From the NCBI GenBank assembly GCA_963816185.1, contig CAWFJJ010000024.1, positions 128,001 to 192,000 on the forward strand: a stretch of 64,000 nucleotides of DNA, in the 5' to 3' direction. The position numbers and the translations under genes were made by a program. The notes beneath the pieces were generated by a model. It searched no databases. It was not told the DNA's origin and was given only the letters and a program-made list of their open reading frames with translations. This stretch comes from Thermoanaerobaculia bacterium (GTDB lineage: Bacteria; Acidobacteriota; Thermoanaerobaculia; UBA5066). Shown piece after piece: positions 1 through 51,904 of the stretch (positions are counted from its first letter, which is position 1; every line of letters starts with the position of its first letter).

Positions 1-244
1 GGTGCGCGGCCTTCCCCGCGGGCCGCGCGAAGAGGAGATACGCCGCCACTCCGGCGAGAAGGAAGATCCCGTAGTTCAGGTGGTGGACGTGCGTCCCGCG
101 CAGGAAGAAGTACAGATTCGGGACGCGCTGCGACATGACGAGAAACACCATCGTCCGCGACGCGATGAAGGTCAGGGCGAAGGCGAGGAGCGAGCGGCGC
201 GCGAGCCGGTCGGTCTCGTTTTCCGAAGGTGGAGTGGCATCCAC
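1..244 (-). CDS. Hypothetical integral membrane protein (partial, runs off window start)
   Basis: Manual translation from GTG: MDATPPSENETDRLARRSLLAFALTFIASRTMVFLVMSQRVPNLYFFLRGTHVHHLNYGIFLLAGVAAYLLF; hydrophobic helices with a HVHHLNYG motif. Confidence 0.6.
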   Translation of the reverse strand, partial: MDATPPSENETDRLARRSLLAFALTFIASRTMVFLVMSQRVPNLYFFLRGTHVHHLNYGIFLLAGVAAYLLFARPAGKAAH

Positions 245-267
245 GCGAGAAAGGATAGCGGCCTTTG

Positions 268-1845
268 CTAGTCGTACACGCCGTCGGCGAACCACTCGCC
301 GCCGGCCTCGTCGTGGAAGATGCGGTAAAGGCCTCCGCCCGAAAGCTCCACGTCCCAGTACGCGCGGAAGGCGGGTGCCTCCTGCCACCAGCCCTCCTCG
401 AGGCGCCACGGGCCCGAAGCCACGCGCACGGTGCCGGCCACGTCCAGCGCCGGCCGCCCACCGCCGTCTGCGGAAGCGGGTTCGAGCGCGCGCAGCGAAG
501 AGGGCCGCTCGCCCTCGAGAAGCACCTCGAGCGGCACGGGTGGACGGAGCACGCGAACCGAGAGAAGCCCGCGGCCGGTCTTCGGCGTCTTTCGCGCCGC
601 GGGAGGAGGCGGCGGAGCGAACGGCACGAGGGCGAAGCGCTCGGGGCGATGGCCGTCCACGGCGCTCGGCGCGCCGACGCGCCCGGGCCCGAGCAGCGCG
701 AACAGCTTCGCGAGCGCCGTCGCGAGACGGTCGGGCGAGATCTCGGCCGGCCCGAACAGCGTGAGCTGGCTCTTGCGCGGGGCGTCGGGCTGCGCCGTGA
801 GGGAGAAGCCCGTGACGGCGGCGCCCGGCGGCCGGCCTTCGAGGCCGAGGCGCACGAGCGTGAGAAGCGTCTTCACGTCGCGCGTGGGCGCGGGCAGATC
901 CAGGCTGCGCGTGTCGCAGCCCTCGGGGTCGAGCGTCAGGGAGATGTCCAGCCGCGCGCACCCTACGGCCTCCGCCTCGAGACGCCGCGCGAGGCGTTCG
1001 AGCGCGCTCTCGGCGAGCGCGAGGAATGGCTCGAGCGTGACGAGCGGCCACTCCAGCTCCATGCCTTCCGTGAAGCCCGGCGGCGGCCGGCGCGGTACGA
1101 GGGGGCGCGGGTCGCGCCCGCGCGCGATCTCGTGCAGCGCGTGCCCGCGCGCGCCGAGCCGGCTCGCGACGTCGGCCGCGGGCAGCTTCGCGAGGTCGCC
1201 CACCGAGGAGAGGCCCCAGCGCGCGAGCGTCTCGACGATCTCGGCATCGGGATCCAGCTTCGCGAGCGGCAGCGGTGCGAGAAACGCGGCTTCGCCGCCT
1301 GCGGGGACGGCGACGGGAGAGTCCGGCAGCGTCGCGGCCACGCGCGCGGCGAGCTTGCTCGACGCGAGCCCGCAGCGCGCGGGCAGCGACTCGCGCTTCG
1401 CGGCGGCGATCAGGGTGCGGCCGAGATCGCGCTCGTCGGGAAAAAGGCGCTCGAGGCCGTCCGCGTCGAGGTACACGACGCCGTCACCAGCGTCCTCCAC
1501 GCGCGGCGACACGGTGCCGGCCACGTCGAGAAGCGCCTCCATGGCGGCGCGCTCGCTCTCGGCGTCGCGCGCGCGGGTGAGAAGGTCGGGCACGAGCGCC
1601 CGCGCCTGCGGCAGCGTGAAGCCCGGGCGGATGCCGGCCTTGCGCGCCTTGCGCGTGGCCGCGACCACGTGCGCGGCCGTCCCGTTCCCCTCGCACAGAA
1701 TGACCGCCTCGTCCCGCAGCGCGGGCTCGCTGCGCAGCCGCGCGGCGAGGGGAAACAGCGGCACCACGAGACACGCGAGGCGTGGGGCGGGAACGGGAGA
1801 AGGTTGTTTTTGCTGCTCCCCGAGCACGGACGACGTTCGCTCCAT
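268..1845 (-). CDS. imuB: ImuB-like Y-family DNA polymerase homolog (probably catalytically inactive)
   Basis: N-terminal LACLVVPLFPLAA, AGIRPGFTLPQARAL, SPRVE..GDGVVYLD, LARWGLSSVGDL, C-terminal GPWRLEEGWW..YWDVE..GLYRIF; next to imuA. Confidence 0.85.
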   Translation of the reverse strand: MERTSSVLGEQQKQPSPVPAPRLACLVVPLFPLAARLRSEPALRDEAVILCEGNGTAAHVVAATRKARKAGIRPGFTLPQARALVPDLLTRARDAESERAAMEALLDVAGTVSPRVEDAGDGVVYLDADGLERLFPDERDLGRTLIAAAKRESLPARCGLASSKLAARVAATLPDSPVAVPAGGEAAFLAPLPLAKLDPDAEIVETLARWGLSSVGDLAKLPAADVASRLGARGHALHEIARGRDPRPLVPRRPPPGFTEGMELEWPLVTLEPFLALAESALERLARRLEAEAVGCARLDISLTLDPEGCDTRSLDLPAPTRDVKTLLTLVRLGLEGRPPGAAVTGFSLTAQPDAPRKSQLTLFGPAEISPDRLATALAKLFALLGPGRVGAPSAVDGHRPERFALVPFAPPPPPAARKTPKTGRGLLSVRVLRPPVPLEVLLEGERPSSLRALEPASADGGGRPALDVAGTVRVASGPWRLEEGWWQEAPAFRAYWDVELSGGGLYRIFHDEAGGEWFADGVYD

Positions 1846-1973
1846 GCCTGCTGTGCCCCGCTTTTCATCAGGATGTTTTTCTTAGAAGGTGAATATCCCC
1901 GGCTCCAACACCCTCAGCGCGTGAATGCGGACAACCGGCCTGAAAACGCAACGGCGAAGATTTCTTTCTTCTG

Positions 1974-2118
1974 ATATGCGGCGGCTGCAGTTGCAGCCCT
2001 GGCCGGCCTGATTGGACGCGGGGGGTCCGGGGGCGCCCGAAGGCAAGCCCCCGGAGAGCGCGCGCAAGCGCGCCGCGCAGCGGTCTTCGATCCTTGACAT
2101 CGGTCATTCGGGAAATAC
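1974..2118. repeat. Composite hairpin repeat element, copy 1 (small palindrome, 40-bp GC hairpin, 31-nt spacer, right IR arm)
   Basis: atatgcggcggctgc is shared with 15345 and 24024; 2021-2060 is identical to 50399-50438; ccttgacatcggtcattcgggaaatac is identical to 24124-24150. Confidence 0.85.
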
Positions 2119-2131
2119 ACGTTCCCCACAC

Positions 2132-2968
2132 TCAGCGCCCGAATGCGGACAAATGACCGGAGAACAAAGTGGCATGCTCTCTTTCCTTTTCCTCTCTTTC
2201 TAAGAAAATTTTCTTTCTTTCTTCCTTGCCTGTCTGAATCGCATCCAGCAGGGAAAGATTCAGCAGGCTCGTCTTTTCTTTCATCTTCGCGTCCCGCGTC
2301 TTCTCGAGCACGAGGCGTGAGGACAGGCCGTCGAGGAGCGACACGCTCTGCGGCCAGCGGTCCAAGCACGCGCGGTCCCAGCCCGCCCGCGCCGCATCGG
2401 CCGCGAGCACGATGCGCGCCGCGGTGCCTGTGACGCGGTAGGGCGCGAGGACGAGGAGCGCCGCGTCGTGAAAGCGCGCGCGACGCGCGAGGCGCAGCCA
2501 GACGGCGTCGTCGAAACGCCGCCTGAAGATGCGTGAGAGCCCGAGGTCGAGGACGACGAGCGCGAAGCCCGTCGCGAGGACGGTCTCGGCCGCGGCGAGC
2601 GCGGGTTTCAACCCGCGGGGGCGCAGCCACAGCACCCGCGAGAGCTCGGCGCCGGCGGCGGCCGCGCCCTGCGGGTCGAAGTGGTCGCCGGGATCCACGA
2701 GCGCGGCGGCTTCGCCCGTCTGCGTCGTCGCGGCGAGCGCGGAGAGGGCCACCGAGAAGCGGCCCGAGGACATGCGCCCCGACATCTCCACGAGAGCGCC
2801 GCGGGGCAGCCCGCCTCCCAGCAGCCGGTCCAGTCCCTCGATTCGCGTGGGCAGAAACTCCGGCGCGAACCGTTCGCGCGAAAGTCCGGAGGCGGTGGTC
2901 AGCCGGGCGGCGATCTCTCGAGGTAAGTCAGGCAGGGGCAGCGGGGCGGGAAGAGACAGCGCCGACAC
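2132..2968 (-). CDS. imuA: ImuA/RecA-like protein
   Basis: LPTRIEGLDRLLGGGLPRGALVEMSGRMSSGRFS (degenerate Walker A), AALVDPGDHFDP, LVVLDL. Confidence 0.85.
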   Translation of the reverse strand: MSALSLPAPLPLPDLPREIAARLTTASGLSRERFAPEFLPTRIEGLDRLLGGGLPRGALVEMSGRMSSGRFSVALSALAATTQTGEAAALVDPGDHFDPQGAAAAGAELSRVLWLRPRGLKPALAAAETVLATGFALVVLDLGLSRIFRRRFDDAVWLRLARRARFHDAALLVLAPYRVTGTAARIVLAADAARAGWDRACLDRWPQSVSLLDGLSSRLVLEKTRDAKMKEKTSLLNLSLLDAIQTGKEERKKIFLEREEKEREHATLFSGHLSAFGR

Positions 2969-2974
2969 GCGGCA

Positions 2975-3011
2975 AACGTAGGTCCGCTCGAGACGTAAGT
3001 CAAGCGTAAGT
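2975..3011 (-). promoter_or_regulatory. Putative sigma70 promoter of imuA (TTGACT-N17-TACGTT) with ACTTACG direct repeats over the -35
   Basis: Minus strand reads acttacgcTTGACTtacgtctcgagcggaccTACGTTtgccgcGTG; the -10 lies 6 nt before the start codon. Confidence 0.55.
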
Positions 3012-3032
3012 TTTTATGGCTGGGAAGAGGCT

Positions 3033-3638
3033 TTATGGCCTTTCCGTGGGTGGCTTCTCACCCGGGCCCGGAAGCTCCGGCCACTCACCGCCGGAGTCCT
3101 CGGCGGCGAGCAGATGCTCCAGCGAGTGGTAGCGGTAGATCGTCGGGGCCTTGTTGACAAAAAGCCCGCCCGTATCGGCCGTCGGCCCGTACGTCGAATA
3201 GAGCGGGCGGCCGAGGAGGCGTAGATACACCGTGAGCTGGCCGCGGTGGTGCGACGAGTGCGTCAGCCGACGGAGGAACACCCACGAGCGCGTCTCCTCC
3301 ACGTCGAAGAATTTCGTCCCCTCGTTCCACCAGTCCGCGGTTCTCGCCGCGAGGATCTCGCGCCGTCTCCCGGACGCCTCGGCGTAGTGGTGCAGGAAAC
3401 CGAGCCGGTCCTCGCGCGCGGGCAGCGCGGGAAGCGCGATCTCGATGCCAAGCATGTTCTTCATCCAGGAGTCTTCCGACACGCACTGGTGGACCATGTG
3501 CTCGAGCGGCGTGCGGGCCCTCGGCGCGGGCCGGAAACCGAGATCCGCGTCGCCGAAGCACGACCACACGCTCAGCGTCTTGAGCCGCTCGGTTTCGTAG
3601 GCGGCGACGAAGAAGCCGCCGGGATTCACGTCCGTCAT
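3033..3638 (-). CDS. DinB/YfiT family protein
   Basis: FRPAPRARTPLEHMVHQC...RRLTHSSHHRGQLTVYLRLLG, typical DinB His motifs. Confidence 0.8.
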   Translation of the reverse strand: MTDVNPGGFFVAAYETERLKTLSVWSCFGDADLGFRPAPRARTPLEHMVHQCVSEDSWMKNMLGIEIALPALPAREDRLGFLHHYAEASGRRREILAARTADWWNEGTKFFDVEETRSWVFLRRLTHSSHHRGQLTVYLRLLGRPLYSTYGPTADTGGLFVNKAPTIYRYHSLEHLLAAEDSGGEWPELPGPGEKPPTERP

Positions 3639-3684
3639 GACGCCGCCATTCTGCGCCCTGCGGCGTCCGCCACGTCGAGGTTTG

Positions 3685-4149
3685 CTACGGCTTTGCTCCC
3701 GCGATTTCACGCGAGAACTTGACGCCCTGCTGCGCATAGCCCCGCTCGCGGTAGAAGCGATGCGCCGCATCGCGATGCGAGGCGCTCGTCACCTCGATGC
3801 GGCCGCAGCCGAGCTCGGCGAGGAACTCTTCGGCGTGGCGGAGAAGAGCCGAGCCGATTCCCTGCCCCGTGTGGGGCCGAGCCACGACGATCACGCTGAC
3901 GCGGCCGACCGGGAGGGCCCTGTGAAGAACCGGCGTCGAGAACGCGGACACGAGTCCGATGACTCCTCCGCTCTTGACGGCAACGAAGACGCCGTAGTTC
4001 GGGGCGAGGGCCTGCATCCGGGCGATCTGGGTACGGGCGAGAGCCGGCTCGAGGGGATGGCCGAGCTCCGTCAGAAGGTCCGAGATCGCGCCGGCATCGT
4101 CCTGACTAGCGGCCCGAATCTCCAATCCGGCCTGAGCGCTCGTGTGCAC
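3685..4149 (-). CDS. GNAT family N-acetyltransferase
   Basis: IRAASQDDAGAI...GQGIGSALL...AHRFYRERGY acetyl-CoA binding motif. Confidence 0.85.
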   Translation of the reverse strand: MHTSAQAGLEIRAASQDDAGAISDLLTELGHPLEPALARTQIARMQALAPNYGVFVAVKSGGVIGLVSAFSTPVLHRALPVGRVSVIVVARPHTGQGIGSALLRHAEEFLAELGCGRIEVTSASHRDAAHRFYRERGYAQQGVKFSREIAGAKP

Positions 4150-4193
4150 GGCCCGACGATACCAAGCGCTGCGCGAGACTCCGCGCCCGCGGG

Positions 4194-4742
4194 TCAGGAC
4201 GCGGCGAACGCGTGGTGCTCGAGGAAGACCGCAAGATCCTGGGGAGAGAAAAACACGAGTCGAACCTCTCGAATCGCGGGCAACTCCGCCAGCGCCGAGG
4301 CGATGGCCGAAGACGACACCCGCGCCGCTTCCGAACGCGGGTAGCCGTAGATGCCGGTCGAGATCGCGGGGAAGGCGATCGATTCGAGGCCGTGCTCGTG
4401 CGCGAGGAGGAGAGACTTCCGATAGCAGGAGGCGAGAAGGGCCGCCTCGTCGCCCGAATGCGATCCGTAGATCGGTCCGACCGTGTGAATGACGAATCTG
4501 GCCGGAAGCCGGCCACCGGGCGTGATGACCGCCTCTCCCGTGGGAAGGCCGGAAGGCCAGACCGTGCGCCTCAGCTCCTGGCATGCCGAGAGAATGGCCG
4601 GCCCTCCTGCGCGATGGATGGCCCCGTCCACGCCGCCACCTCCCAGGAGGGAGCTGTTCGCGGCGTTCACGATGGCGTGAACGTTCTGGCGCGTGATGTC
4701 CCCGGAAATGGCGAGGACGGTGTCTTCCAGAAAGCTGTGCAC
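4194..4742 (-). CDS. ymdB: Macro-domain O-acetyl-ADP-ribose deacetylase (YmdB-like)
   Basis: GDIT..AIVNAANSSLLGGGGVDGAIHRAGG, VIHTVGP, SIAFPAISTGIYGYP. Confidence 0.9.
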   Translation of the reverse strand: MHSFLEDTVLAISGDITRQNVHAIVNAANSSLLGGGGVDGAIHRAGGPAILSACQELRRTVWPSGLPTGEAVITPGGRLPARFVIHTVGPIYGSHSGDEAALLASCYRKSLLLAHEHGLESIAFPAISTGIYGYPRSEAARVSSSAIASALAELPAIREVRLVFFSPQDLAVFLEHHAFAAS

Positions 4743-4768
4743 GAAGTGCGGGGACCGCGCGTGACGTC

Positions 4769-5290
4769 TCAGCGCTGATACGTGCCGACGAGCTCGGCCC
4801 GCGCGAGCACGTGCGACTTGATGGCGGCTTCGAAGCGCTCCTTCGTCGGAGGCGGCGGGCTGAGAGACGCGACGTCAAGCGCGTAGAGGCGATGCGAGTA
4901 ACGATGAGTCCCCGATGGGGGGCAGGGGCCGCGATAGCCGACCGAGCCGAAATCGTTGGAGCCCTCGGCGGCGCCCGCGGGCAGCGTGCCGGGTTTGAGG
5001 CCTTCGGCGAGGGACGTCGTGGACGCCGGGATGTTGAAGAGGAGCCAGTGGGTGAAGCCGCTCGCGTCCGGGTCGTCTACAACCACCGCGAAAGAGCGCG
5101 TGCCGGCCGGAACACCGGTCCAGGTGAGCGGCGGAGAGACGTCGCCTCCGTCGCAGGAGTGGGGCTTCGGGATCGCGGCACCCGCGCGGAAGGCGGACGA
5201 CGAAAGCGTCATCCCGTGGCTCAAGTCTCGGCCGCACGACGTCGCGAGAAGGAGGAGAGCAGAGAAAAGGGCCTTGGCTTCAGGTCTCAT
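4769..5290 (-). CDS. YbhB/YbcL (PEBP, Raf-kinase-inhibitor-like) lipoprotein
   Basis: Lipobox LATSC; SPPLTW, DDPDA..FTHW, GYRGPCPP..HRY. Confidence 0.9.
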   Translation of the reverse strand: MRPEAKALFSALLLLATSCGRDLSHGMTLSSSAFRAGAAIPKPHSCDGGDVSPPLTWTGVPAGTRSFAVVVDDPDASGFTHWLLFNIPASTTSLAEGLKPGTLPAGAAEGSNDFGSVGYRGPCPPSGTHRYSHRLYALDVASLSPPPPTKERFEAAIKSHVLARAELVGTYQR

Positions 5291-6045
5291 GGAAGCTCCA
5301 GGTCGAGCGTGAGATGAAGAAGGGCCGTGAGGTCTCCTTCCGTCGAGACGACTCCCTTCTTGTAGCCTTCGGGGCTGCCCGGCGGCGCATAGAGTCCGGG
5401 GATCGTCCGCGGAGCCACGAGCGCGAGCGTCACGGGATGCGACCCGCGAAACGTCGCGTCCACCGGCACGATCGCGGTCGCGCGCGCGAGCTCCGTCGCG
5501 ATCACCTTCCCGATCTGAACGTGAAGAACCTCTCGTGCCGGAGCCGCGAGAAGCGGAATGCGGCCTACGAACTGCCCGATGACGGTGTTCAGGGCCGCGC
5601 CGAGGATCGGCCCCACGGCGTTCGTGCGCTCGACGAAGAGGCACGCGTGGAGGTTCACATGGCTCGACACTTTCACGGCGCCGCCGAAGAACGGATTCCC
5701 GTTCTGATCGGGCGGGAGATCCGCCGCGGCGATCGTCTGTCCTGAGGACGCCGCGAACGGAAGGTGCGCGGAGGCGAGCGCGGAGCTCTCGCCGGAAGCG
5801 GCCGGGTCGGGGTCCTCGAGCTGAAGGACGAGCGAGAGATCCGTCGCCTTCACGCCTTCGCCGGGCCAGCCGTTGTGCTTCACGTCGATCGAGACGAAGG
5901 AGACGGTGAGAGTTGGGGCGGCGGGAGACGAGGATCTTCTTGCTTTCGGAGCGAGCCGAGAGGGCGAGCCCTTAGCCGGGCGGCTGATCGCAGAGGGTTT
6001 CGGTGGTTTTCTCTTAGAAAGTGAATGGGACCCGGGGTTTCGCAT
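5287..6045 (-). CDS. Hypothetical protein
   Basis: Long ORF with host-like codon usage, stop overlaps the next start, RBS-like GGAGG upstream; no family recognised. Confidence 0.6.
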   Translation of the reverse strand: MRNPGSHSLSKRKPPKPSAISRPAKGSPSRLAPKARRSSSPAAPTLTVSFVSIDVKHNGWPGEGVKATDLSLVLQLEDPDPAASGESSALASAHLPFAASSGQTIAAADLPPDQNGNPFFGGAVKVSSHVNLHACLFVERTNAVGPILGAALNTVIGQFVGRIPLLAAPAREVLHVQIGKVIATELARATAIVPVDATFRGSHPVTLALVAPRTIPGLYAPPGSPEGYKKGVVSTEGDLTALLHLTLDLELP

Positions 6046-6298
6046 CGGGCCTCCTTCCGGCTTCGGCGGCGCCAGCGATTCTTTCACCTTCTAAGAAAAA
6101 TCAACCGTCCCGTTGCTTCGGTGTAGCAAGTCGCGCTGCGGCGGCACCGGCTGCGTCATTCACCCTTCTAAGAAGATCCACTTTGACGGGTTGCTTCGCG
6201 GTAGAACGTCACGAGTCGCCGGGATTCGCCGGAGAGGGAGCAGAAATCCCTTCTGCTCCTTCTGTCCCCGTAGAATCCACCCCTTGCAGGAGGATTCG

Positions 6299-6868
6299 AT
6301 GAAACGCCTCTCGTCTCTCTCTCTCGGGGCTTTCGCGCTGTTGGGTCTGCTTCTGGCCGCTCGCCCCGCTCTCGCTCGCGACATGGCGGGCGTCAGCCTG
6401 CCCGACACGCTTTCGGCGGGCGACAAGACGCTCAAGCTGAACGGCCTCGGCTTGCGGAAAAAGGCCATCTTCAAGGTCTACGTGGGCGGTCTCTATCTGG
6501 AGGCGCCGTCGAAGGACGCCGCGGCGATCGTCGCCGCCGACGCGCCAAAAGCGGTTCGCATGCACTTTCTTCGCGACCTGAAGAAGTCACAGCTCACGGA
6601 TGCCTTTTCGGAGGGCTTCGAAGCAAATGCGAAGGCGAAGGCAGCGGCCCAGAAGGCTGCTCTCGACAAGATGCTCGCCCTCGTGCCCGACGTGAAGGAA
6701 GGCGAGACGCTGTCGTTCGTCTACGTGCCCGGGAAGGGGACGACCTTCTTCGCCGGCGCCAAAGCGCTCGGGACGTTCGAAGGCAAGGATTTCGCCGACG
6801 TCATCTTTCTGCTCTGGCTCGGGCCGAAGCCTCCGTCCGAGGATCTGAAAAAGGGAATGCTGGGTTGA
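6299..6868 (+). CDS. Chalcone-isomerase-like periplasmic protein
   Basis: Signal peptide; LKLNGLGLRKK..FKVYVGGLYL...IFLLWLGPKPPSEDLKKGMLG; AGGAGG RBS. Confidence 0.85.
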   Translation: MKRLSSLSLGAFALLGLLLAARPALARDMAGVSLPDTLSAGDKTLKLNGLGLRKKAIFKVYVGGLYLEAPSKDAAAIVAADAPKAVRMHFLRDLKKSQLTDAFSEGFEANAKAKAAAQKAALDKMLALVPDVKEGETLSFVYVPGKGTTFFAGAKALGTFEGKDFADVIFLLWLGPKPPSEDLKKGMLG

Positions 6869-8955
6869 CGAACGGCGCCCCTCTTCAGAGCCTGCTCTCC
6901 GAAAAACGCTTCGATCTCGTCGAAACTGCCTTCCTGGACGCGCTCTCGGATCCCGTCGCGAAATCCGAAACGCTGCTCGCGGCGGTGCGCGGCCTCGCCC
7001 GGGCCGGCCAGAAGGCACGTCTTCAAGGGGTCGCCGGAATGGCCGAGGCCGAGCTGAAGGGGAAATCCTCCGACTCGGCCACGGCGCGCCTTCGCTGGAC
7101 GATCCTGAAGGAAGCGGTGCGCGCCGGGGCGACACCCTCTACGCCCGACGGCTTTCACAGGCTCTTCGAAGAAGTCCTGGCCGCCGCCTGGCCGTCCCAT
7201 CCGTCGCTCCCGGCCCTCCTCGGTCGCTTCAAGTTCCGCGAGGCGAAGGATCCCGCGGACGGGCTCGCGCGGGCCGAGAGGGCCGAGAAGTGGCTGCCGT
7301 TCGAGGTCGGCCGCGTCTTTTCGATGGCGGGCCGCGGGGCAGGCAAGGTCGTCGAGACGAACTTCGCTCTCGACTCCGTTCGCATGGACTTCGAGGCGGC
7401 GAAGGGAATCGCGATTCCGATCGGCGTGGCGTCGAAGGGCCTGGTGCCGCTTCACGAGGGGCATTTCCTGTTCGAGAAGCTCACGGCTCCCGGCGCCCTG
7501 AGGGAGCGAGTCGTCGCCGACCCCGGCCTCGCCCTGAAGCATCTCATCGAGTCCTTCGGCCGCTCGCTCACGATGGCCGAGGTGAAGGAGGCCGTGAAGG
7601 GCCTGATCACGGAGGACGCGTGGAGCTCGTGGTGGGCCGCGGCGCGCAAGAATCCGCAGGCCGTCGTACACGGGAGCGGAAAGACCGCGACGGTGGAATG
7701 GTCGCACTCGGCGGATGCGGCGGACGCCTCTCTTCTTGCGCGCTTCGAGAAAGCTTCGCTGAGGGACCAGATCGACCTCTTCCGGAAGAATCAGAAGCGC
7801 TCGGCGGAGCTCGCCATCGCCATGGCCAGGGCGCTCGCGAAGGAGGCCGAGGCGCTCGAGGACCGGGATCCCGCGCTCGCTTTCGAGATCGCGGTCCTCG
7901 TCGAGAAAATTCCGAGCGTCTCTCTCGCGGGCGCAATCGAGAAACACGTTCTCGGGCAGCCGTTGGCGCTCCTCCCGCGCCTCACGGACCGCGTGATGCG
8001 CGAGCGGGCCCTGGAGATCGTCGTCAAGGAGCGGCCTGCGGAGGCTCCCGGGATCCTCGCGGACTGGTTCTTCAAAGAGGAGGACGTGCGCACGCTCGAA
8101 GCGATCGACCGTCGCCTCGCCGAGATCGAGCCCGACACGCGCGAGCGCACGCTCGAGAAGCTCCTCAAGTCGCCCCGCGTGGGGCCGCGCGCGTTCGTCT
8201 GGTTTGCGCAGCGTTCCGCTCAGGACGAGTCCTTCCGGGCCCGCCTCAACCCGGCGGTTCTCTCGCGCCTTCTCGACGCGCTCACGTGGGACGAGCTGGG
8301 AGCCGCCCGCTCGAAGGTGAGGGAGATGTTCGACCGGACCGGTCTGGTGGCCGGCTGGCTCGTGAAGCAGGCCACCGTCGAGGACGCGCGCGTCTTTCTC
8401 GAAGCGCTCTCGCGCCACCACGAGCTCGAGCCGCACCGGCGCGACGGGCTCGTGGCCGCCGCCGAGATGCGCTTCCCCGATCTCAGGCGAACGGAGGACG
8501 ACACCTTCTTCGTCACGGCCCCGGCGATCGAGGCAAAGCGCAAGGAGCTGGAGAACATCCTGAAGGTCGAGATCCCCGAGAACACGAAGGGGATCGCGCT
8601 CGCGGCCGCAGAAGGTGATCTCACGGAGAACTTCGAGTACAAGGCGCGGCGCGAGAAACAGCAGCTCCTGTCGGCTCGCGCGGGCAAGATCCAGGAGGAG
8701 CTCGGGAAAGCGCGCGCCCTCGACTCCGCGACGGTGGACACGACCGAGGTGCGGCCGGGAGCCCGGGTGACCCTGAAGGGCGCGAAAGGCGCGAAGACCG
8801 CCACGCTCCTGGGGCCCTGGGATTCGAAACCCGAAGAGGGCGTCTATTCGTATCTCTCGGATCTGGGAAAAGCGCTGCTCGGAAAGACGGTCGGGGAGAA
8901 GGCGAACGTGCTCGGAGAAGAGATGACGATCGAGAAGATAGAGGTCTTCGTATAG
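6865..8955 (+). CDS. GreA/GreB family elongation factor with a ~540-aa N-terminal extension
   Basis: C-terminal IPENTKGIALAAAEGDLTENFEYKARRE...LLGPWDSKPEEGVYSYLSDLGKALLGK. Confidence 0.85.
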   Translation: MTNGAPLQSLLSEKRFDLVETAFLDALSDPVAKSETLLAAVRGLARAGQKARLQGVAGMAEAELKGKSSDSATARLRWTILKEAVRAGATPSTPDGFHRLFEEVLAAAWPSHPSLPALLGRFKFREAKDPADGLARAERAEKWLPFEVGRVFSMAGRGAGKVVETNFALDSVRMDFEAAKGIAIPIGVASKGLVPLHEGHFLFEKLTAPGALRERVVADPGLALKHLIESFGRSLTMAEVKEAVKGLITEDAWSSWWAAARKNPQAVVHGSGKTATVEWSHSADAADASLLARFEKASLRDQIDLFRKNQKRSAELAIAMARALAKEAEALEDRDPALAFEIAVLVEKIPSVSLAGAIEKHVLGQPLALLPRLTDRVMRERALEIVVKERPAEAPGILADWFFKEEDVRTLEAIDRRLAEIEPDTRERTLEKLLKSPRVGPRAFVWFAQRSAQDESFRARLNPAVLSRLLDALTWDELGAARSKVREMFDRTGLVAGWLVKQATVEDARVFLEALSRHHELEPHRRDGLVAAAEMRFPDLRRTEDDTFFVTAPAIEAKRKELENILKVEIPENTKGIALAAAEGDLTENFEYKARREKQQLLSARAGKIQEELGKARALDSATVDTTEVRPGARVTLKGAKGAKTATLLGPWDSKPEEGVYSYLSDLGKALLGKTVGEKANVLGEEMTIEKIEVFV

Positions 8956-9023
8956 AAAGATCGAAGACTTTGCTTCGGATGAGGATTCGGATCTCGGATT
9001 TTCTTAGAAAGGTGGAGGAAGCA

Positions 9024-15130: not shown

Positions 15131-16179
15131 TGCTCACGCTGCCGCCGATGGACCTCGGGCTCGTGGTGCGCAGCCACGGCTGGTACGACTTGCCTCCATT
15201 CGAATGGGACGCGAAAGAAAAGACCCTGGGATTGATTTTCTTAGAAGGAGAATGCCCCGTACGAGTCGAGGTGGCGGAGCAGCCGGGCGGACTGGTTGCT
15301 CAGGCTCGGGCCATCGCGCCTTCGGCGCGGGAGACCGATTTCTCATATGCGGCGGCTGCTGTGCAGCCGCCGATAGCAGCAAATCTGTCCTCGGATGGCG
15401 GGAGTCAAGGGCGCGCTGCGCGCGCCGCGAAGCGGTCGAAGACCCTTGACACCCGCCTTCCGAGGAAGATCTCTTTCTCTTTCAAAGCAAATCTCTCTTC
15501 GGACGTTCCATCCGAGGCCTCGGTTCGTCGTGCGCTGGAACGGGTCCTCGATCTGAAAGCGGATCTTTCTTCTTTCCACTCCCTCTGCGCCGGGGACCCG
15601 CGCTTCGCGTGGGTCGCCCGGCGCGGGGCGGGGCGGATCCTGCGCGCGCCGACTCTGTTCGAGGACGCCGTAAAGGTCCTCGCGACGACGAACTGCACCT
15701 GGGGTCTGACGAAGCTCATGGTGAACAATCTGATCGAACGCTTCGATCGGGGCGGGGCATTTCCGGATGCGCCCTTCGTCGCGGGCCTTTCCGCGCGCTC
15801 TCTCGCCGCTGCGAAATGGGGTTACCGTGCGCCTTATCTCACCGCGTTCGCGCGGCGCGTCGCCTCGGGAAAGCTGGATCTCGCGCGCTGGGAGGATCCG
15901 GACCTTCCCGACGAGGAGGTCGAGAAGGAGATCCGCGCGGAGAAAGGCTTCGGCCCTTATGCCGCCGACACGCTGGGGCGGCTTCTCGGGCGGCACCGCA
16001 AGCTGGGCCTCGACGCCTGGTCTCGCAAGAAGGTCGCGACCCTGAGGTTTCGGGGCCGCGCCGTGAAGGACGCGCGCGTCGCGCGCTTCTACGCGTCGTT
16101 CGGACCGCACGCGGGCCTCGCGTTCTGGCTCGACATGACGCACGACTGGCACGAGGAGAAGGAGACCGTGTGGCCCTGA
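15127..16179 (+). CDS. HhH-GPD DNA glycosylase (AlkA/Ogg-like) with an in-frame repeat insertion
   Basis: SHGW.DLPPF, GRILRAPTLFEDAVKVLATTNCTW, WGYRA, KGFGPYAA. Confidence 0.8.
   Translation: MMLTLPPMDLGLVVRSHGWYDLPPFEWDAKEKTLGLIFLEGECPVRVEVAEQPGGLVAQARAIAPSARETDFSYAAAAVQPPIAANLSSDGGSQGRAARAAKRSKTLDTRLPRKISFSFKANLSSDVPSEASVRRALERVLDLKADLSSFHSLCAGDPRFAWVARRGAGRILRAPTLFEDAVKVLATTNCTWGLTKLMVNNLIERFDRGGAFPDAPFVAGLSARSLAAAKWGYRAPYLTAFARRVASGKLDLARWEDPDLPDEEVEKEIRAEKGFGPYAADTLGRLLGRHRKLGLDAWSRKKVATLRFRGRAVKDARVARFYASFGPHAGLAFWLDMTHDWHEEKETVWP
15345..15466. repeat. Composite hairpin repeat element, copy 2 (in frame inside the glycosylase)
   Basis: 24-bp IR 15388-15411 / 15443-15466 (22 of 24 paired), 31-nt spacer, preceded by gcggcggctgctgtgcagccgccg. 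Confidence 0.85.
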
Positions 16180-47759: not shown

Positions 47760-49239
47760 ATGCCCCGCTTCACGGTTCTCGAGACTTCGGCCCTCTTCTC
47801 GAACCGGGTCAAGTACGACTACCTGTTCGAGATGGAGATGTGGCTGAAAGGCCTCGAGCGGTTCTTCCAGATCGACTGCCTGCCGCTCTCGGCCTTCGAG
47901 CGTTCGCACGCGTCGCTCAAGAACTACGTGGAGGAGGTGGGCGCCGTGCGCGCCGGCGTGGCCTACATGGCGATGCTCACGACGCAGCTCCTCGGGGAGG
48001 GCAAGGAAGACCTCGCGTCGTTCCTCGTGTACCTGGACAGCCAGGTCGCGCGGACGGGCAGCGGCGAGATGCCTGCGCGCCGCCGCGGAGAACGCCGAGA
48101 CGGAGCTCGCGCTCGTCGTCGAGAAGCTCGAGGATTTCGCGAAGATCCTCGACGAGCTCTCGCGCGCGCCGTTCGTCGCGCTCCAGACGTATCTGTCGCT
48201 CGGCCGGATCGTGGTCGGCACGCTCCGGCAGGACCCGAATCTCGGCGTCCTCTTCCGCGAGAACCTGCGGCCGGTCCTCGACAAGGAGTCGAAGCAGTCG
48301 CTCGGCCGGGTGCTCGAGAGCCTGCCCGACCCTTCGCACCGGGGGGCGCTCGCGGCGCTCTTCGTCGCGCTCTTCAAGGGGTTGCGCTACGCGGACCGGG
48401 CTCGCACCGCCGCCGAGTCGCCCGCCACGCGCACCCGCGCGCTTCTCGTCTTCAGCCTCCTCAAGGGAGAGAGCGAGTCCATCGCCTCGTTCATCTCGAA
48501 GCGCCTCGCGCCGCGCTTCCCGGAGGGGTCGCCCCAGGCCGCCGGGCTGCGGCGCATCGTGACCGCGTTCGAGGCGGAGGTGAAGAAGGTCATGGACGTC
48601 GAGCTCGTCGACGTCGTGCTCATGAAGGATCCGGCTCTCGTCCTCACGCGCCTCGAGGATGCGGCCGCCCTCGTGCGCGACCTTTACCAGCAGAGCGTCA
48701 TCTCGCTCGCCGAGACCTTCTCGTCCGGGCTCGACGAGCGCACGCTCTTCCCCGAGTACCGGACGCGGCTCGACCAGAGCCTCGTTCTGAGGGACGAGCT
48801 CTCTCAGCTCGTGAAGGCGACCCATGATTTCGTGAAGACGCCCGACAAGAAATCGCTGCGGACTCTCGTGGCCGAGCTCGAGTCCTTCCGCCGGAGCGGG
48901 ATGCGCCACCTCATGTTCAAGGACTGGTCCTTGTTCGAGCGTTTCCTCGCCGGCTTCTCTCGCGAGCGGCCTCCGAGGTCCTTCCTGCCGGCCGCGCACC
49001 AGTTCGAGGGCTTTCTGAAGACTCTCGTCAAGGAGATCGGCAAAAGGTCCGTCCTCGCGAATCATCCCTTCAAGGGATTCCGCCTCGAGCGGCGGCTCGC
49101 CGGCTGGCGGGCCGGGCGCCTCCCGGTACAATTGACGGCTGGCGGCCGCCGCGCCGTCCCGATTCCGAAAGGAAGAAGAACGTGGGATTCGTTTCCGTCA
49201 CGCAGGCAGCGGCTGCCTACAAGCAGGGCCGCTTCGTGA
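47760..49239 (+). CDS. Hypothetical helical protein (indels; 3' end uncertain)
   Basis: [19 protein letters not shown].. joins ORF 48211-49239 ([30 protein letters not shown]). Confidence 0.6.
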
Positions 49240-50385
49240 TCATCGTCGACGACGAGGATCGCGAGAACGAGGGCGACCTCTGCCTCGCGGCCGAGTACGT
49301 CACGCCGGCCGCGATCAACTTCATGGCCCGCGAGGGCCGCGGGCTCGTCTGCGTCTCGCTTGACGGAGGAGCGCTGCGACGAGCTGGATCTGCACCCGAT
49401 GGTCGAGCAGAACACGTCCAATTACGGGACGGCCTTCACCGTGTCCGTCGAGGCGCGCGGCAAGACCACGACCGGCATCTCGGCGGCCGACCGCGCGGTG
49501 ACGGTGAAGACGCTCATCGACCCGAAGACGAAGCCGCAAGACCTGCTGCGGCCCGGCCACACGTTCCCGCTGAGGGCGAGGAAGGGCGGCGTCCTCAAGC
49601 GGGCGGGCCAGACGGAGGCGTCCGTCGACCTCGCGCGCATCGCCGGCCTCATGCCCGCCGCCGTCATCTGCGAGATCATGAACGAGGACGGGACGATGGC
49701 CCGCGTGCCGGATCTCCTCGTCTTCTCGGAGAAGCACGGCGTCCCGATCGTCTCGGTGGCCGACATCATCCGCCACAGGATGCGCACGGAGCGCCTCGTG
49801 CAGCGCATCGCGTCCCCCACGCTGCCGACGCGCCACGGCTCGTTCCGCGTCGTCGCCTATCGGTCCGACGTCACGCACGAGGAGCACGTGGCGCTCGTGG
49901 CGGGAGAGTGGAGCGAGGACGAGCCCGTCCTCGTCCGCGTGCACTCCTCCTGCCTCACCGGCGACGTCTTCGGCTCGGAGCGCTGCGACTGCGGGGCGCA
50001 GCTCGAGCGCGCGATGGAGCTGATCGCGCGGGAGGGAAAGGGCGTGCTCCTCTATCTCCTTCAGGAGGGCCGCGGCATCGGCCTCGTGAACAAGCTGCGC
50101 GCCTACGAGCTGCAGGAGCAGGGCCTCGACACCGTCGCCGCGAACGAGAAGCTCGGCTTCGCGCCCGACGTCCGTGACTACGGCATCGGCTGCCAGATCC
50201 TGCGGGACCTCGGCGTGCGGAAGATCCGCCTCCTCACGAACAACCCGTCCAAGTACGTCGCGATCGACGGCTACGGCCTCGAGATCGTCGAGCGCGTCCC
50301 GCTCGAGATCCCTCCCACGGACGGCACGCGCGACTACCTGACCACGAAAAAAGCGAAGATGGGTCATATATTGAAATTGGTATGA
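49182..50385 (+). CDS. ribBA: Bifunctional DHBP synthase / GTP cyclohydrolase II (one indel)
   Basis: [44 protein letters not shown]. Confidence 0.95.
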
Positions 50386-50398
50386 GCAGCTTCGGCCC

Positions 50399-50438
50399 GG
50401 GGGTCCGGGGGCGCCCGAAGGCAAGCCCCCGGAGAGCG
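50399..50438. repeat. 40-bp REP-like GC hairpin, identical to 2021-2060
   Basis: GGGGGTCCGGGGGCGCCCGAAGGCAAGCCCCCGGAGAGCG; TCCGGGGGC/GCCCCCGGA stem. Confidence 0.88.
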
Positions 50439-50521
50439 ATGGGGCACATCCTGAAGCTGGTCTAGAGGCGCAGGGGGAGGGGTCCGGGGATCTTAGAAGG
50501 AAGGGCCTGTGCGAGCGGCCG

Positions 50522-51261
50522 TCAGCGGCGATATCGCTCCGCAAGCTGCTCGGGCGATTCGCCCCGCCTCGCCTTCCAGAGGATCTTCCAGTTCCCGAGC
50601 ACGGTCTCGTGCGACGCCGCGCTCGAGGTAACGGCGTGGGGAGGTTTCCACCGCGTCCCGGAGAATCTCGATGCGCCCTTCTTTCTTGAGCCTCCTCGCG
50701 AAATCCCAGTCGTCGAGGAGCGGCCAGGGCGGATGGCCGCCGAGCTTCTCGTAGACGTCGCGCCTGACGAACGGAGCCTGGTCGCCGTACGGAACGCGCG
50801 TGAACGCCGTGCGGGCATTCGCCCAGAAGGCGACCCAGCGCATGCGCGCGCCGCCGCCGGAGAAAGACAGCCGGAACGCGCCGCCGACGGCCCGCGAGGC
50901 GATCGCGCGGCGGATCGCCTGCTCCCAGCCGGCGGGCAGCAGCGTGTCGGCGTGAAGAAAGAGGAAGATGTCTGCTGAAGAGGAAGAAGAAGAGGAAGAA
51001 GACGATTCTTTGAAGGTGAAGAGGGCCGCCTCGCGCAGGCGCTGTCCGCGCGCCGCGTGCGACAGGTGGATACGAGCCCCTGCACGCGCGAAGGCCTCAC
51101 ACACATTCGAAGAAATCTCCGAATCTGCCGCGACGACGAGCGAAACGGGTCCCGCCGCCTGCCAGAACCCTCTCGAAGAAAATCCCCGGTGGGGGACCTT
51201 CGCCGGCCGCCACGGGGACGATGACCGCGATGCGATCCGAAGCCGGCGACGGCGGTACCAT
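50522..51261 (-). CDS. GT2 glycosyltransferase (TIGR04283-like), one indel, poly-Ser insertion
   Basis: IAVIVP, ARGQRL, FLHADT, GAFRL, YGDQ, TSPRRY. Confidence 0.8.
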
Positions 51262-51270
51262 CCCGCCACG

Positions 51271-51904
51271 ATGCCATACGGGTTCGTCCTCGTGGGCGGT
51301 CGCTCGGAGCGGATGGGCCGCGACAAGACGCGCCTGCCCTACCGGGGAGTCCCGATGGCGCTCCATCAGGCCGAGAAGCTCGCGGTCGTGTGCGGGCGCG
51401 TCGCCCTCGTCGGGAAGGACCCCAAGGCGTTCGGCGACTCCCGCTTTCCCTACGTGACCGACGGTGCGCCCGAGGCGGCCGCGGCGTTCGGCGTCGCCGC
51501 GGCTCTCGCGTTCTCGCCGGAGGAGACGAATCTCGTCCTCGCGGCGGACGTGCCGCGCTGCCCCGAGTCGTTTCTCGCGGCTCTCCTGGACGTCGCCGAA
51601 GCGATTCACGCGCCCGCCGTGGTGCCGGTCTCGGGCGGGCGGGCGCAGCCGCTCTGCGCCGTGTGGCGGCGGTCCGCGCTCGGGCCGCTCCGCTCGCGGC
51701 TCGAGGCCGGCGATTACTCTCTCATCGCGGCGCTCCATGCTTTTCACGCCGTGCTCATCCCCGAGGAGGTCACGGCCGCGATGGCCGGAGGCGCTCCGGC
51801 GAATTTCTTCAACGTCAACACCCCGGAGGAATATGAAGAGCTCGAAAGGGAAGCCCCGGCGGAAGGCCGCGACCGGCGCGGCCGCTCAGCCACCTCGACG
51901 CTGA
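51271..51904 (+). CDS. mobA: Molybdenum cofactor guanylyltransferase
   Basis: LVGGRSERMGRDK, ADVP, QPLCAVW, FFNVNTPEE. Confidence 0.85.

Follow-up and report, generated by a model that had tools for sequence, protein, structure and literature searches.

A recoded ribBA 3' end and an orphaned native tail around a genus-specific hairpin repeat: a putative small form of gene-tail replacement

Large, integrase-bearing prophages are known to replace a gene's tail and to leave the native end behind as an orphan. Judged by analogy, the nearest known system to the locus described here would be e14 or phage 21 in icd of E. coli. According to PMC13626634, the mobile DNA supplies a working 3' end there, the native end is orphaned downstream, and the copies differ by several silent and a few conservative changes (for icd and icdC, several synonymous changes plus D>E). 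The same feature, a silently or conservatively differing replacement 3' end together with an orphaned native 3' end, was present at ribBA. The e14 insert, however, is about 15 kb long, as against 53 nt at ribBA, near which no integrase was found, and the two ribBA junctions have no identical crossover core (attL/attR). Unlike e14, the hairpin found here occurred at many genes, each with its own tail copy, and with duplications of 9-44 nt, some of which were perfect local copies.

REP and BIME elements are short GC-rich extragenic hairpin repeats that go with RAYT transposases (Y1 HUH). The present hairpin resembles them in being GC-rich, in lying just behind stop codons, in its taxon-specific sequence, and in its compensatory stem changes, but its copy number was very low (1-9 matches per positive genome) and no Y1_Tnp/RAYT gene was detected in G000, the assembly that contains the window (PF01797, 0 matches at 94.9% completeness, with 6 of 14 control genomes positive); long target duplications are, to our knowledge, no described property of REPs. 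MITEs duplicate a short target stretch of constant length and end in inverted repeats that match a parent IS, whereas the duplications here were long and variable (about 9 to 44 nt) and no parent IS came to notice. Correia elements and Rickettsia palindromic elements are similar in being small, non-autonomous repeats that are tolerated at gene ends and reshape them. Homology-facilitated illegitimate recombination at DNA uptake combines a long homologous anchor with a short or microhomologous joint, and an anchor in the gene body may thus place a translated tail copy (T1), a linker, and the hairpin before the resident tail; in contrast to that process, the right-hand joint here was always the hairpin end, which suggests some specificity. 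No published description of this layout was found in a search of the open-access literature.

The window analyzed was the whole stretch of 64,000 nucleotides. The features of the site are listed below in window coordinates.

49360..50385, + strand: ribBA (ORF list; Pfam PF00926, 5.7e-60, and PF00925, 9.5e-76)
50347..50385, + strand: recoded tract T1', the last 12 sense codons and the stop, with silent changes relative to relatives
50359-50385, + strand: translated duplicate T1 within T1', 27 nt, MGHILKLV*
50386..50399, + strand: linker from stop codon to hairpin core, 13-14 nt, of a sequence found at this locus alone
50400..50438, + strand: hairpin core, a genus-specific repeat; the 39-mer is identical to 2022-2060
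50439..50465, + strand: orphan T2, the native ribBA tail, 8 codons and a stop outside the ribBA translation
50466..50521, + strand: native intergenic DNA 3' of ribBA; the motif and ...CGGCCGTCAGC recur downstream of ribBA in the relatives
50522..51277, - strand: convergent gene beyond ribBA (ORF list), whose stop bounds the intergenic DNA
2022..2060, + strand: second hairpin core in the window, adjoining half of another small repeat; a gene-tail duplication is absent

The ribBA product is a bifunctional DHBP synthase / GTP cyclohydrolase II, and its open frame starts at 49243. The gene ends with the AT-rich T1 (atg ggt cat ata ttg aaa ttg gta tga, 50359-50385), which is separated by 53 nt, hairpin included (50386-50438), from the GC-rich orphan T2 (atg ggg cac atc ctg aag ctg gtc tag, 50439-50465). 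An earlier, sequence-only reading of this DNA had reported one peptide spelled twice with every non-Met codon and the stop changed, the translated copy being AT-rich and the orphan GC-rich. Both statements were borne out: all 7 of 7 non-Met codons and the stop differed, by one base per sense codon and always silently, and the 8 codons of the translated copy had a GC content of 0.29, as against 0.58 for those of the orphan. The layout it gave was also correct, and its positions were off by a few bases at most (the match at the second core is 39 nt long, 2022-2060). All seven changes in the duplicated block were GC>AT when read from the orphan to the translated copy, and the only sequence common to the starts of both copies was ATGGG.

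The recoding was not confined to the duplicated block. Silent changes began 12 nt 5' of it (aaa aaa gcg, where relatives have aag aag gcc), and the last 60-nt window of ribBA contained 10-16 differences from relatives, compared to 0-7 per window in the gene body (six closest comparisons). GC3 was 0.94 (347/368) in the body of ribBA versus 5/12 in the last 12 codons (P = 1e-6), and AAA, GGT, CAT, ATA, and GTA, all used in the recoded tail, were used nowhere else in the gene. The duplicated and recoded ribBA tail was confirmed as real and beyond chance. Selection on mRNA structure was considered as a cause of the recoding and gained no support; when compared for unpairedness with 300 random silent recodings, the ribBA tail ranked only at the 20th percentile, the predicted pairing of the last codons was 0.40 for the actual tail and 0.51 for a native-like tail, and 31% of GC-matched silent recodings were as unpaired as the actual tail or more so.

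The hairpin core at ribBA has an outer stem formed by 50404-50412 with 50425-50433, carries its loop on a short inner stem, and folds at about -31 kcal/mol. Matches as long as the 39-mer shared by 50400-50438 and 2022-2060 were expected 0 times in shuffled sequence. The hairpin is followed by GGAGAGCG and then by the orphan, and a T-run is absent; the hairpin therefore lacks the directly following U-run that marks an intrinsic (Rho-independent) terminator. Rfam searches gave no match at E up to 10 over 49000-51000, which includes the ribBA hairpin, and no match at gathering scores over 1-9000. Loci equivalent to 2022-2060 were located on contigs C25 and C30 of G000 and in G011, G012, and G041. 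Pfam analysis of the 7 ORFs between 47.8 and 53.4 kb identified ribBA, a MobA-like protein, MoaC, and MoaA, together with 3 ORFs without a Pfam match; none of the seven had a recombinase domain, in agreement with the sequence-only reading, in which no integrase was visible, and none had a reverse-transcriptase domain.

The DNA after the orphan (from 50466) is weakly similar to the linker and hairpin, and GGGGTCCGGGG recurs in it at 50481; the motif native to the DNA downstream of ribBA had just 9 loose matches across G000, too few for an abundant repeat. The linker is complementary to part of the orphan over a run of 7 nt (P ~0.01). An origin of the linker as an inverted tail copy was rejected, since among 10 loci such complementarity was significant only at ribBA, where it is attributed to chance or to a local feature; at the C17 gene it was marginal (P = 0.04 for the longest run and P = 0.15 for duplex energy).

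Near-exact copies of the hairpin numbered 6 in G000, and the repeat was present in 7 of 41 related genomes, all of one genus, and in 0 of 16 genomes searched from other genera. Eight hairpin stretches were found in a collection of species genomes and 6 in metagenome contigs. In an alignment of 18 copies, a conserved block closes with GGAGAG(C/T), a single C-G/G-C pair is compensatory, and there are G-U wobbles, for which pairing is possible on the gene-sense strand but not on the other; this strand specificity makes a role of the hairpin as an mRNA 3' stem-loop probable. A covariance model (R1) gave 45 matches in 14 of the 29 genomes of the genus, with 1-9 per positive genome and 8 in G000, and the hairpin is thus a low-copy, genus-restricted repeat. 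The matches were sorted by visual inspection of their flanks. Eighteen of the 45 (12 groups) lay 3' of a stop codon, with the last codons of that gene repeated behind them, 3 (1 group) adjoined a duplicated start of a minus-strand gene, 8 lay beside half of another small repeat without duplication, and 4 represented one orthologous intergenic locus; this sorted set excludes 12 of the 45 matches whose flanks gave no class. The same hairpin stood at more than 12 genes, where nothing else separated the tail copies, and the layout also occurred in at least 10 other assemblies, including the 2-contig genome G011, and in metagenome contigs of other projects. Recoded flanking duplications were present at other copies of the repeat, so that the condition which the sequence-only reading had named as refuting it, their absence from every other copy, did not apply.

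The window's assembly (G000) comprises 5.09 Mb in 30 contigs at 67% GC, with an estimated completeness of 94.9% and 3.4% contamination. It contains a second copy of the ribBA region on contig C14 (84-98% identical), and across the 3' end of ribBA the identity between C24 and this co-binned C14 jumps from 90.4% to 98.5%. The gene was present in 28 of 29 genomes of the genus, and a set of 23 natural tails was compiled from the 22 relatives with a readable 3' end and the C14 copy. When these 3' regions were aligned, as the sequence-only reading had proposed, both the empty site and the ancestral GC-rich tail were recovered: all 23 have one GC-rich ribBA tail, lack the core, and continue directly into the DNA that here follows the orphan. 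Contigs of other metagenomes also exhibited the empty site, with 50357 joined to 50438 or with ribBA running into its native tail. Only 1-2 nt separated the orphan from the closest relatives' tails, and T1' differed from each of the 23 natural tails at 5 or more of 27 nt, with a mean of 8.6. The native ribBA tail of this genome is thus the GC-rich orphan, still in place, and the insertion consists of the recoded AT-rich tail, the linker, and the hairpin.

A source for the AT-rich tail was sought in several collections. The nearest natural tail to T1' was that of G016, which belongs to another lineage (5/27 differences; CAT, TTG, GTA, and TGA in common). Nine of the 13 T1' codons were seen at the same position in some natural tail and 4 never were, namely AAA, GGT, ATA, and the second TTG (0/23 natural tails at those positions). 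Neither the exact T1 27-mer nor a degenerate pattern had a match in 185,579 species genomes. Positions 50370-50381 of the tract were absent from contigs of 4 metagenome runs that covered ribBA and, separately, the hairpin, and no indexed run contained more than 0.22 of the words searched. The sole similar stretch in G000, the tail of a low-GC ribBA paralogue on C30 with 6 mismatches, was rejected as a source. The recoded ribBA allele is known from the assembled contig alone, in 1 of 29 genomes of the genus.

Differences between the translated and orphaned copies were tallied over all loci. With one row per independent haplotype (orthologous repeats of a counted haplotype were dropped), and with junction codons counted in 9 groups to the last matching codon, which slightly favors the silent class, and within fixed bounds in the rest, the tally covered 14 independent haplotypes and 113 duplicated codons, of which 58 differed, 55 silently and 3 not (P ~1e-28, against an expectation of ~26% silent if changes were random). 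Three rows were dropped: L053, with a duplication of only ~2 codons; pstB (L049), with a 1-nt deletion in the orphan that breaks the frame; and KSISEKL* of G006, with copies one codon unequal in length. All 3 non-silent differences belonged to the ALDH case. The silent differences included switches between the serine codon families (TCG/AGC, AGT/TCA) as well as arginine and leucine family switches. This excess of silent over non-silent differences (55 versus 3) argues that both copies have a coding history. From the orphan to the translated copy, 29 changes in the 9 groups were GC>AT, 10 were AT>GC, and 18 were other; folE contributed 6 of the 10 AT>GC changes, and the C17 gene was mixed in direction. 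The duplicated stretches ranged in length from about 9 to 44 nt.

We favor, at a probability of about 0.5, a reading in which the hairpin inserts with a long target duplication and the resulting allele then spreads with its own tail copy, as a miniature of e14 in icd without an integrase. The first stage was observed at loci other than ribBA. At L054, a perfect duplication of 22 nt spans the stop codon, and at C1:861611 of G011, a perfect duplication of 33 nt was found, whose orthologue in G003 differs at 2 silent sites; these perfect 22- and 33-nt duplications establish that the insertion itself duplicates the target. Few differences were present at L056 (two) and at L052 (five, all in the last codons). 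The targets had a purine-rich GAAG-type motif at the start of the duplicated stretch, and at 6 of the clear gene-end loci the alignment of T1 and T2 extended into the last bases of the hairpin. A GC-rich hairpin of ~39 nt, sometimes with a short left arm, would thus insert beside a GAAG-type motif and duplicate 9-44 nt. Insertions would survive when the duplicate spans a gene end, usually including the stop codon, so that the upstream copy would complete the gene and the downstream copy would become an orphan or the start region of the next gene. Template switching via junction microhomology with the last bases of the hairpin is a compatible mechanism.

For the second stage, the insertion allele would persist and move between related lineages by recombination, with T1, linker, and hairpin as a heterologous travelling block and the DNA to its right, including T2, as the recipient's own tail. 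Polarity was determined with outgroups in 6 cases (ribBA, the C17 gene with 25 relatives, ALDH with 13 relatives, the DUF gene on C29, a petB-like gene with 25 tails, and msrB; folE and the thiolase at L056 were left out since their relatives are too variable or too distant), and in 6 of 6 the orphan was native-like and the translated copy was the odd one. One T1 haplotype of the petB-like gene (agt, cct, ctt/ctg/ctc) was common to 5 species, of which 3 had the full hairpin, G008 half of it, and G017 none. The genus has two native tail types, between which the orphans of these five species are divided; the T2 of G005 was that of its own clade (G004, G023). At msrB, T1 and a spacer of ~20 nt were nearly identical in 6 species in a core-less form, which is linked to the core family by the petB-like alleles of G017 (no core) and G008 (half core). 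The msrB T2 and downstream DNA of G018 matched the native tail of G023, including a one-codon length difference, and those of G007 matched G008. The msrB tail of G008 itself resembles a T1/T2 recombinant, comparable to the chimeric gene that recombination between the copies restores in e14/icd. At the C29 locus, the odd T1 states are common to G000 and G012, which are only 2 nt apart in T1 and linker; the stasis of this shared insertion argues against continuing hypermutation beside the hairpin.

According to this two-stage reading, T1 and T2 would each once have been a working gene end, in different lineages, and with separate histories of this kind they would be expected to differ as orthologues do, silently or conservatively. 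The second stage is evident at two other loci and is extended to ribBA by inference, in line with a nearest natural tail from another lineage (G016) and with the jump in identity between C24 and C14; its AT-rich tail would come from an incoming or long-isolated haplotype, with the GC-rich orphan as the native end. Several observations speak against this reading, among them the missing donor of T1' and its 4 codons unseen in natural tails. The ribBA insertion looks young (1/29 genomes, with a core identical to other G000 copies) but is more heavily recoded than any other; that at C29, present in two species, is older and has just 3 changes. Counter to the recombination reading, a simple model predicts a donor-derived T2 beside the hairpin and a T1 and T2 that are equally replaceable, and plain recombination alone does not account for a T1 that is kept and a T2 that is replaced. 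Both stops of the WLHNRWRVD* gene of G011 and G003 covary within each genome (TGA/TGA versus TAA/TAA), a pattern better accounted for by local duplication or gene conversion than by a travelling T1. T1 also shifts consistently towards AT, which this reading leaves unexplained.

Recoding in place, whereby a perfect duplication is followed by rapid silent change of the translated copy, whether through mutagenesis close to the hairpin or under selection (for instance to prevent T1/T2 deletion or to keep the mRNA 3' end accessible), with an orphan too young to have changed, would account for several features. Perfect duplications exist as its starting state; the ribBA sense codons each changed by one base, all seven GC>AT in the block, and four of the tract's codons are unseen in natural tails; at three loci (ribBA, the C17 gene, and C29) the recoding goes 9-12 nt further than the duplication; and T1/T2 deletion seems to occur, as suggested by the recombinant-like msrB tail of G008. 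Selection for lower homology, however, should strike the unconstrained orphan at least as often as the gene, and the orphan was native-like in 6 of 6 cases; neither the hairpin nor the orphan beside the tract has changed, the extent of recoding is out of step with apparent age, and the insertion shared by C29 and G012 exhibits no continuing acceleration. Under constraint, single point changes would hardly lead to switches between serine families or to a GCG>AGC triple change, T1 haplotypes are common to species with different T2, and the 20th-percentile rank of the ribBA tail for unpairedness gives accessibility little room. Recoding in place is unlikely on these grounds, although it keeps some weight because the missing ribBA donor, the age mismatch, the AT-ward shift, and the T1/T2 asymmetry remain. 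Local directed AT-mutagenesis, which the sequence-only reading had offered, gained no support, given the variable direction of change (6 AT>GC in folE, mixed in C17), the static shared insertion, and the serine switches; its proposal of selection to remove homology stays conceivable, fits best as selection on the element lineage, and taken alone leaves the unchanged orphan unaccounted for.

Selection of that kind is the core of a rather doubtful alternative, slightly below recoding in place in our estimate, in which the hairpin and its carried tail form a selfish 'tail-swap cassette' that uses the native host tail as a right-hand homology arm, re-sampled at each transfer, and in which the silent recoding is an adaptation of the element. 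Only T1 would be inherited with the element, and lineages would escape deletion or mis-pairing only if T1 were spelled maximally unlike natural tails with the peptide unchanged, a natural counterpart of the recoded-rescue trick of engineered gene drives. If true, this would explain why T1 and T2 are asymmetric, why the ribBA tail is recoded almost to saturation, and why serine families are switched. A milder variant regards T1 as a recombination-cold block that drifts AT-ward beyond the reach of biased gene conversion; if true, it would be a natural read-out of biased gene conversion in a 67% GC genome. The scar of an integrase element of the e14 or phage 21 type, a larger element with a replacement ribBA tail that has lost all but its ends, was among the sequence-only proposals and is very unlikely. 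The replacement tail and orphan with silent or conservative differences match the icd/icdC pattern as given in PMC13626634, and to that extent the analogy stands; the scar itself is contradicted by the 53 nt between the copies, the 7 scanned ORFs without a recombinase, an identical 39-nt core at more than 12 genes with nothing else between copies, duplication lengths of 9 to 44 nt, perfect duplications of local sequence, and a recoded tract that starts 12 nt 5' of the start of the orphan and thus allows no single shared crossover point. An assembly artefact, a chimeric join of two strains in the metagenome-assembled genome, is highly improbable. The bin has 30 contigs, 3.4% contamination, and a second, 84-98% identical region on C14, and no metagenome run with the ribBA allele was found, but the recoded tail matches no other strain, so that there is nothing to be chimeric with, and the layout recurs in the other assemblies (at least 10, G011 with its 2 contigs among them) and in metagenome contigs of other projects. 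Least credible of all is mutagenic copying in the style of a diversity-generating retroelement, with the orphan as invariant template and the gene-end copy rewritten. The geometry is like that of a variable repeat, hairpin, and template repeat, and the downstream copy is invariant; such an element was nevertheless rejected, with 0 of 7 changes in the ribBA block at template (orphan) adenines, silent changes that are the opposite of diversification, repeats of just 9-44 nt, and no reverse-transcriptase domain in the 7 ORFs near ribBA. Taken as a whole, the interpretation in the sequence-only reading was partly supported.

Here, an insert of ~50 nt without an enzyme of its own gives the outcome known from prophages at more than 12 genes, and the tail copy travels between species. 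We infer from the sister loci, where the mechanism is partly shown, that the ribBA site represents a small form of gene-tail replacement tied to a genus-specific hairpin. If true, this would explain how small repeats sit harmlessly inside the last codons of essential genes, and it would provide a marker of allele transfer between related lineages, with T1 following the element and T2 the host. It would also offer a natural test bed for repeat divergence against the deletion of insertions and for the upkeep of GC-rich synonymous sites. For annotation, the orphans explain short coding-like frames behind genes and sudden breaks in codon usage in the last 10-15 codons.

Within the source assembly bin (G000), a 45-kb contig, C14, was found to carry a syntenic second copy of positions 139095-183165 of C24, the contig of the window (about 11095-55165 in window numbering), with an identity of 84-98%. 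The ribBA gene on C14 has an empty site, that is, a single native tail and no hairpin insert, and an empty counterpart of the hairpin-bearing gene on C17 is present on C30. Co-binning of two relatives, and not true duplication, probably accounts for the C14/C24 and C17/C30 pairs. The assembly has a size of 5.09 Mb and a contamination value of 3.4%.

Contig C30 also carries a third ribBA-like gene:

G000 C30:112933-113355, minus strand: third ribBA-like gene, protein identity 72%

This gene lies in low-GC surroundings and its product has the C-terminus ...MGHMLKLVES*. The spelling of its tail differs from the recoded (AT-rich, silently re-spelled) ribBA tail at 6 of 27 positions, and is nearer to the recoded tail than to the tails typical of the genus.

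A motif around TTCTTAGAAGG(T)NA..GGGC recurs in intergenic positions behind convergent gene ends and was seen 3' of many genes of the genus, for example at window positions 50485-50504 and in relatives; it loosely recalls part of the hairpin core, the 39-nt genus-specific repeat, namely its loop region. A 20-nt probe for this motif returned only 9 loose matches in G000. Two other repetitive features were recorded, the first in a genome-wide scan for repeated C-terminal peptides and the second at the start region between a convergent gene and a MobA-like gene:

G000 C24:628449-628700, outside the window: tandem array with a 66-nt unit
Window 50955-51010: purine-rich GAA/GAG run with a poly-Glu stretch in one of its frames and poly-Ser on the opposite strand

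Three places hold a further small repeat, whose inverted ends are of the form ...CCTTGACATCGGYCATTCGGGAA:

Window 1925-2165: small repeat
G000 C25, about 499770-499960: small repeat
Locus L061 (relative G007), 3' of folE: small repeat

The direct repeat ...GAATGCGGACAA stands on both flanks of the unit, which is about 215 nt long, and the hairpin core at 2022-2060 in the window occupies the expected place of one half of the repeat.

Among the relatives, a diverged hairpin copy lies between apparent succinyl-CoA synthetase beta and alpha genes (G009 C109:10310 and G012 C199:1862), apparently with the ribosome-binding/start region repeated on either side of it. Hairpin copies with added material, either a second small hairpin within the loop (G012) or an insertion of about 25 nt in the left arm, were observed at G012 C260, about 15283-15349 (loci L133/L247), G008 C1:24453, G012 C253, and G003 C6:406278. 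The hairpin element is evidently itself a target of further insertions.
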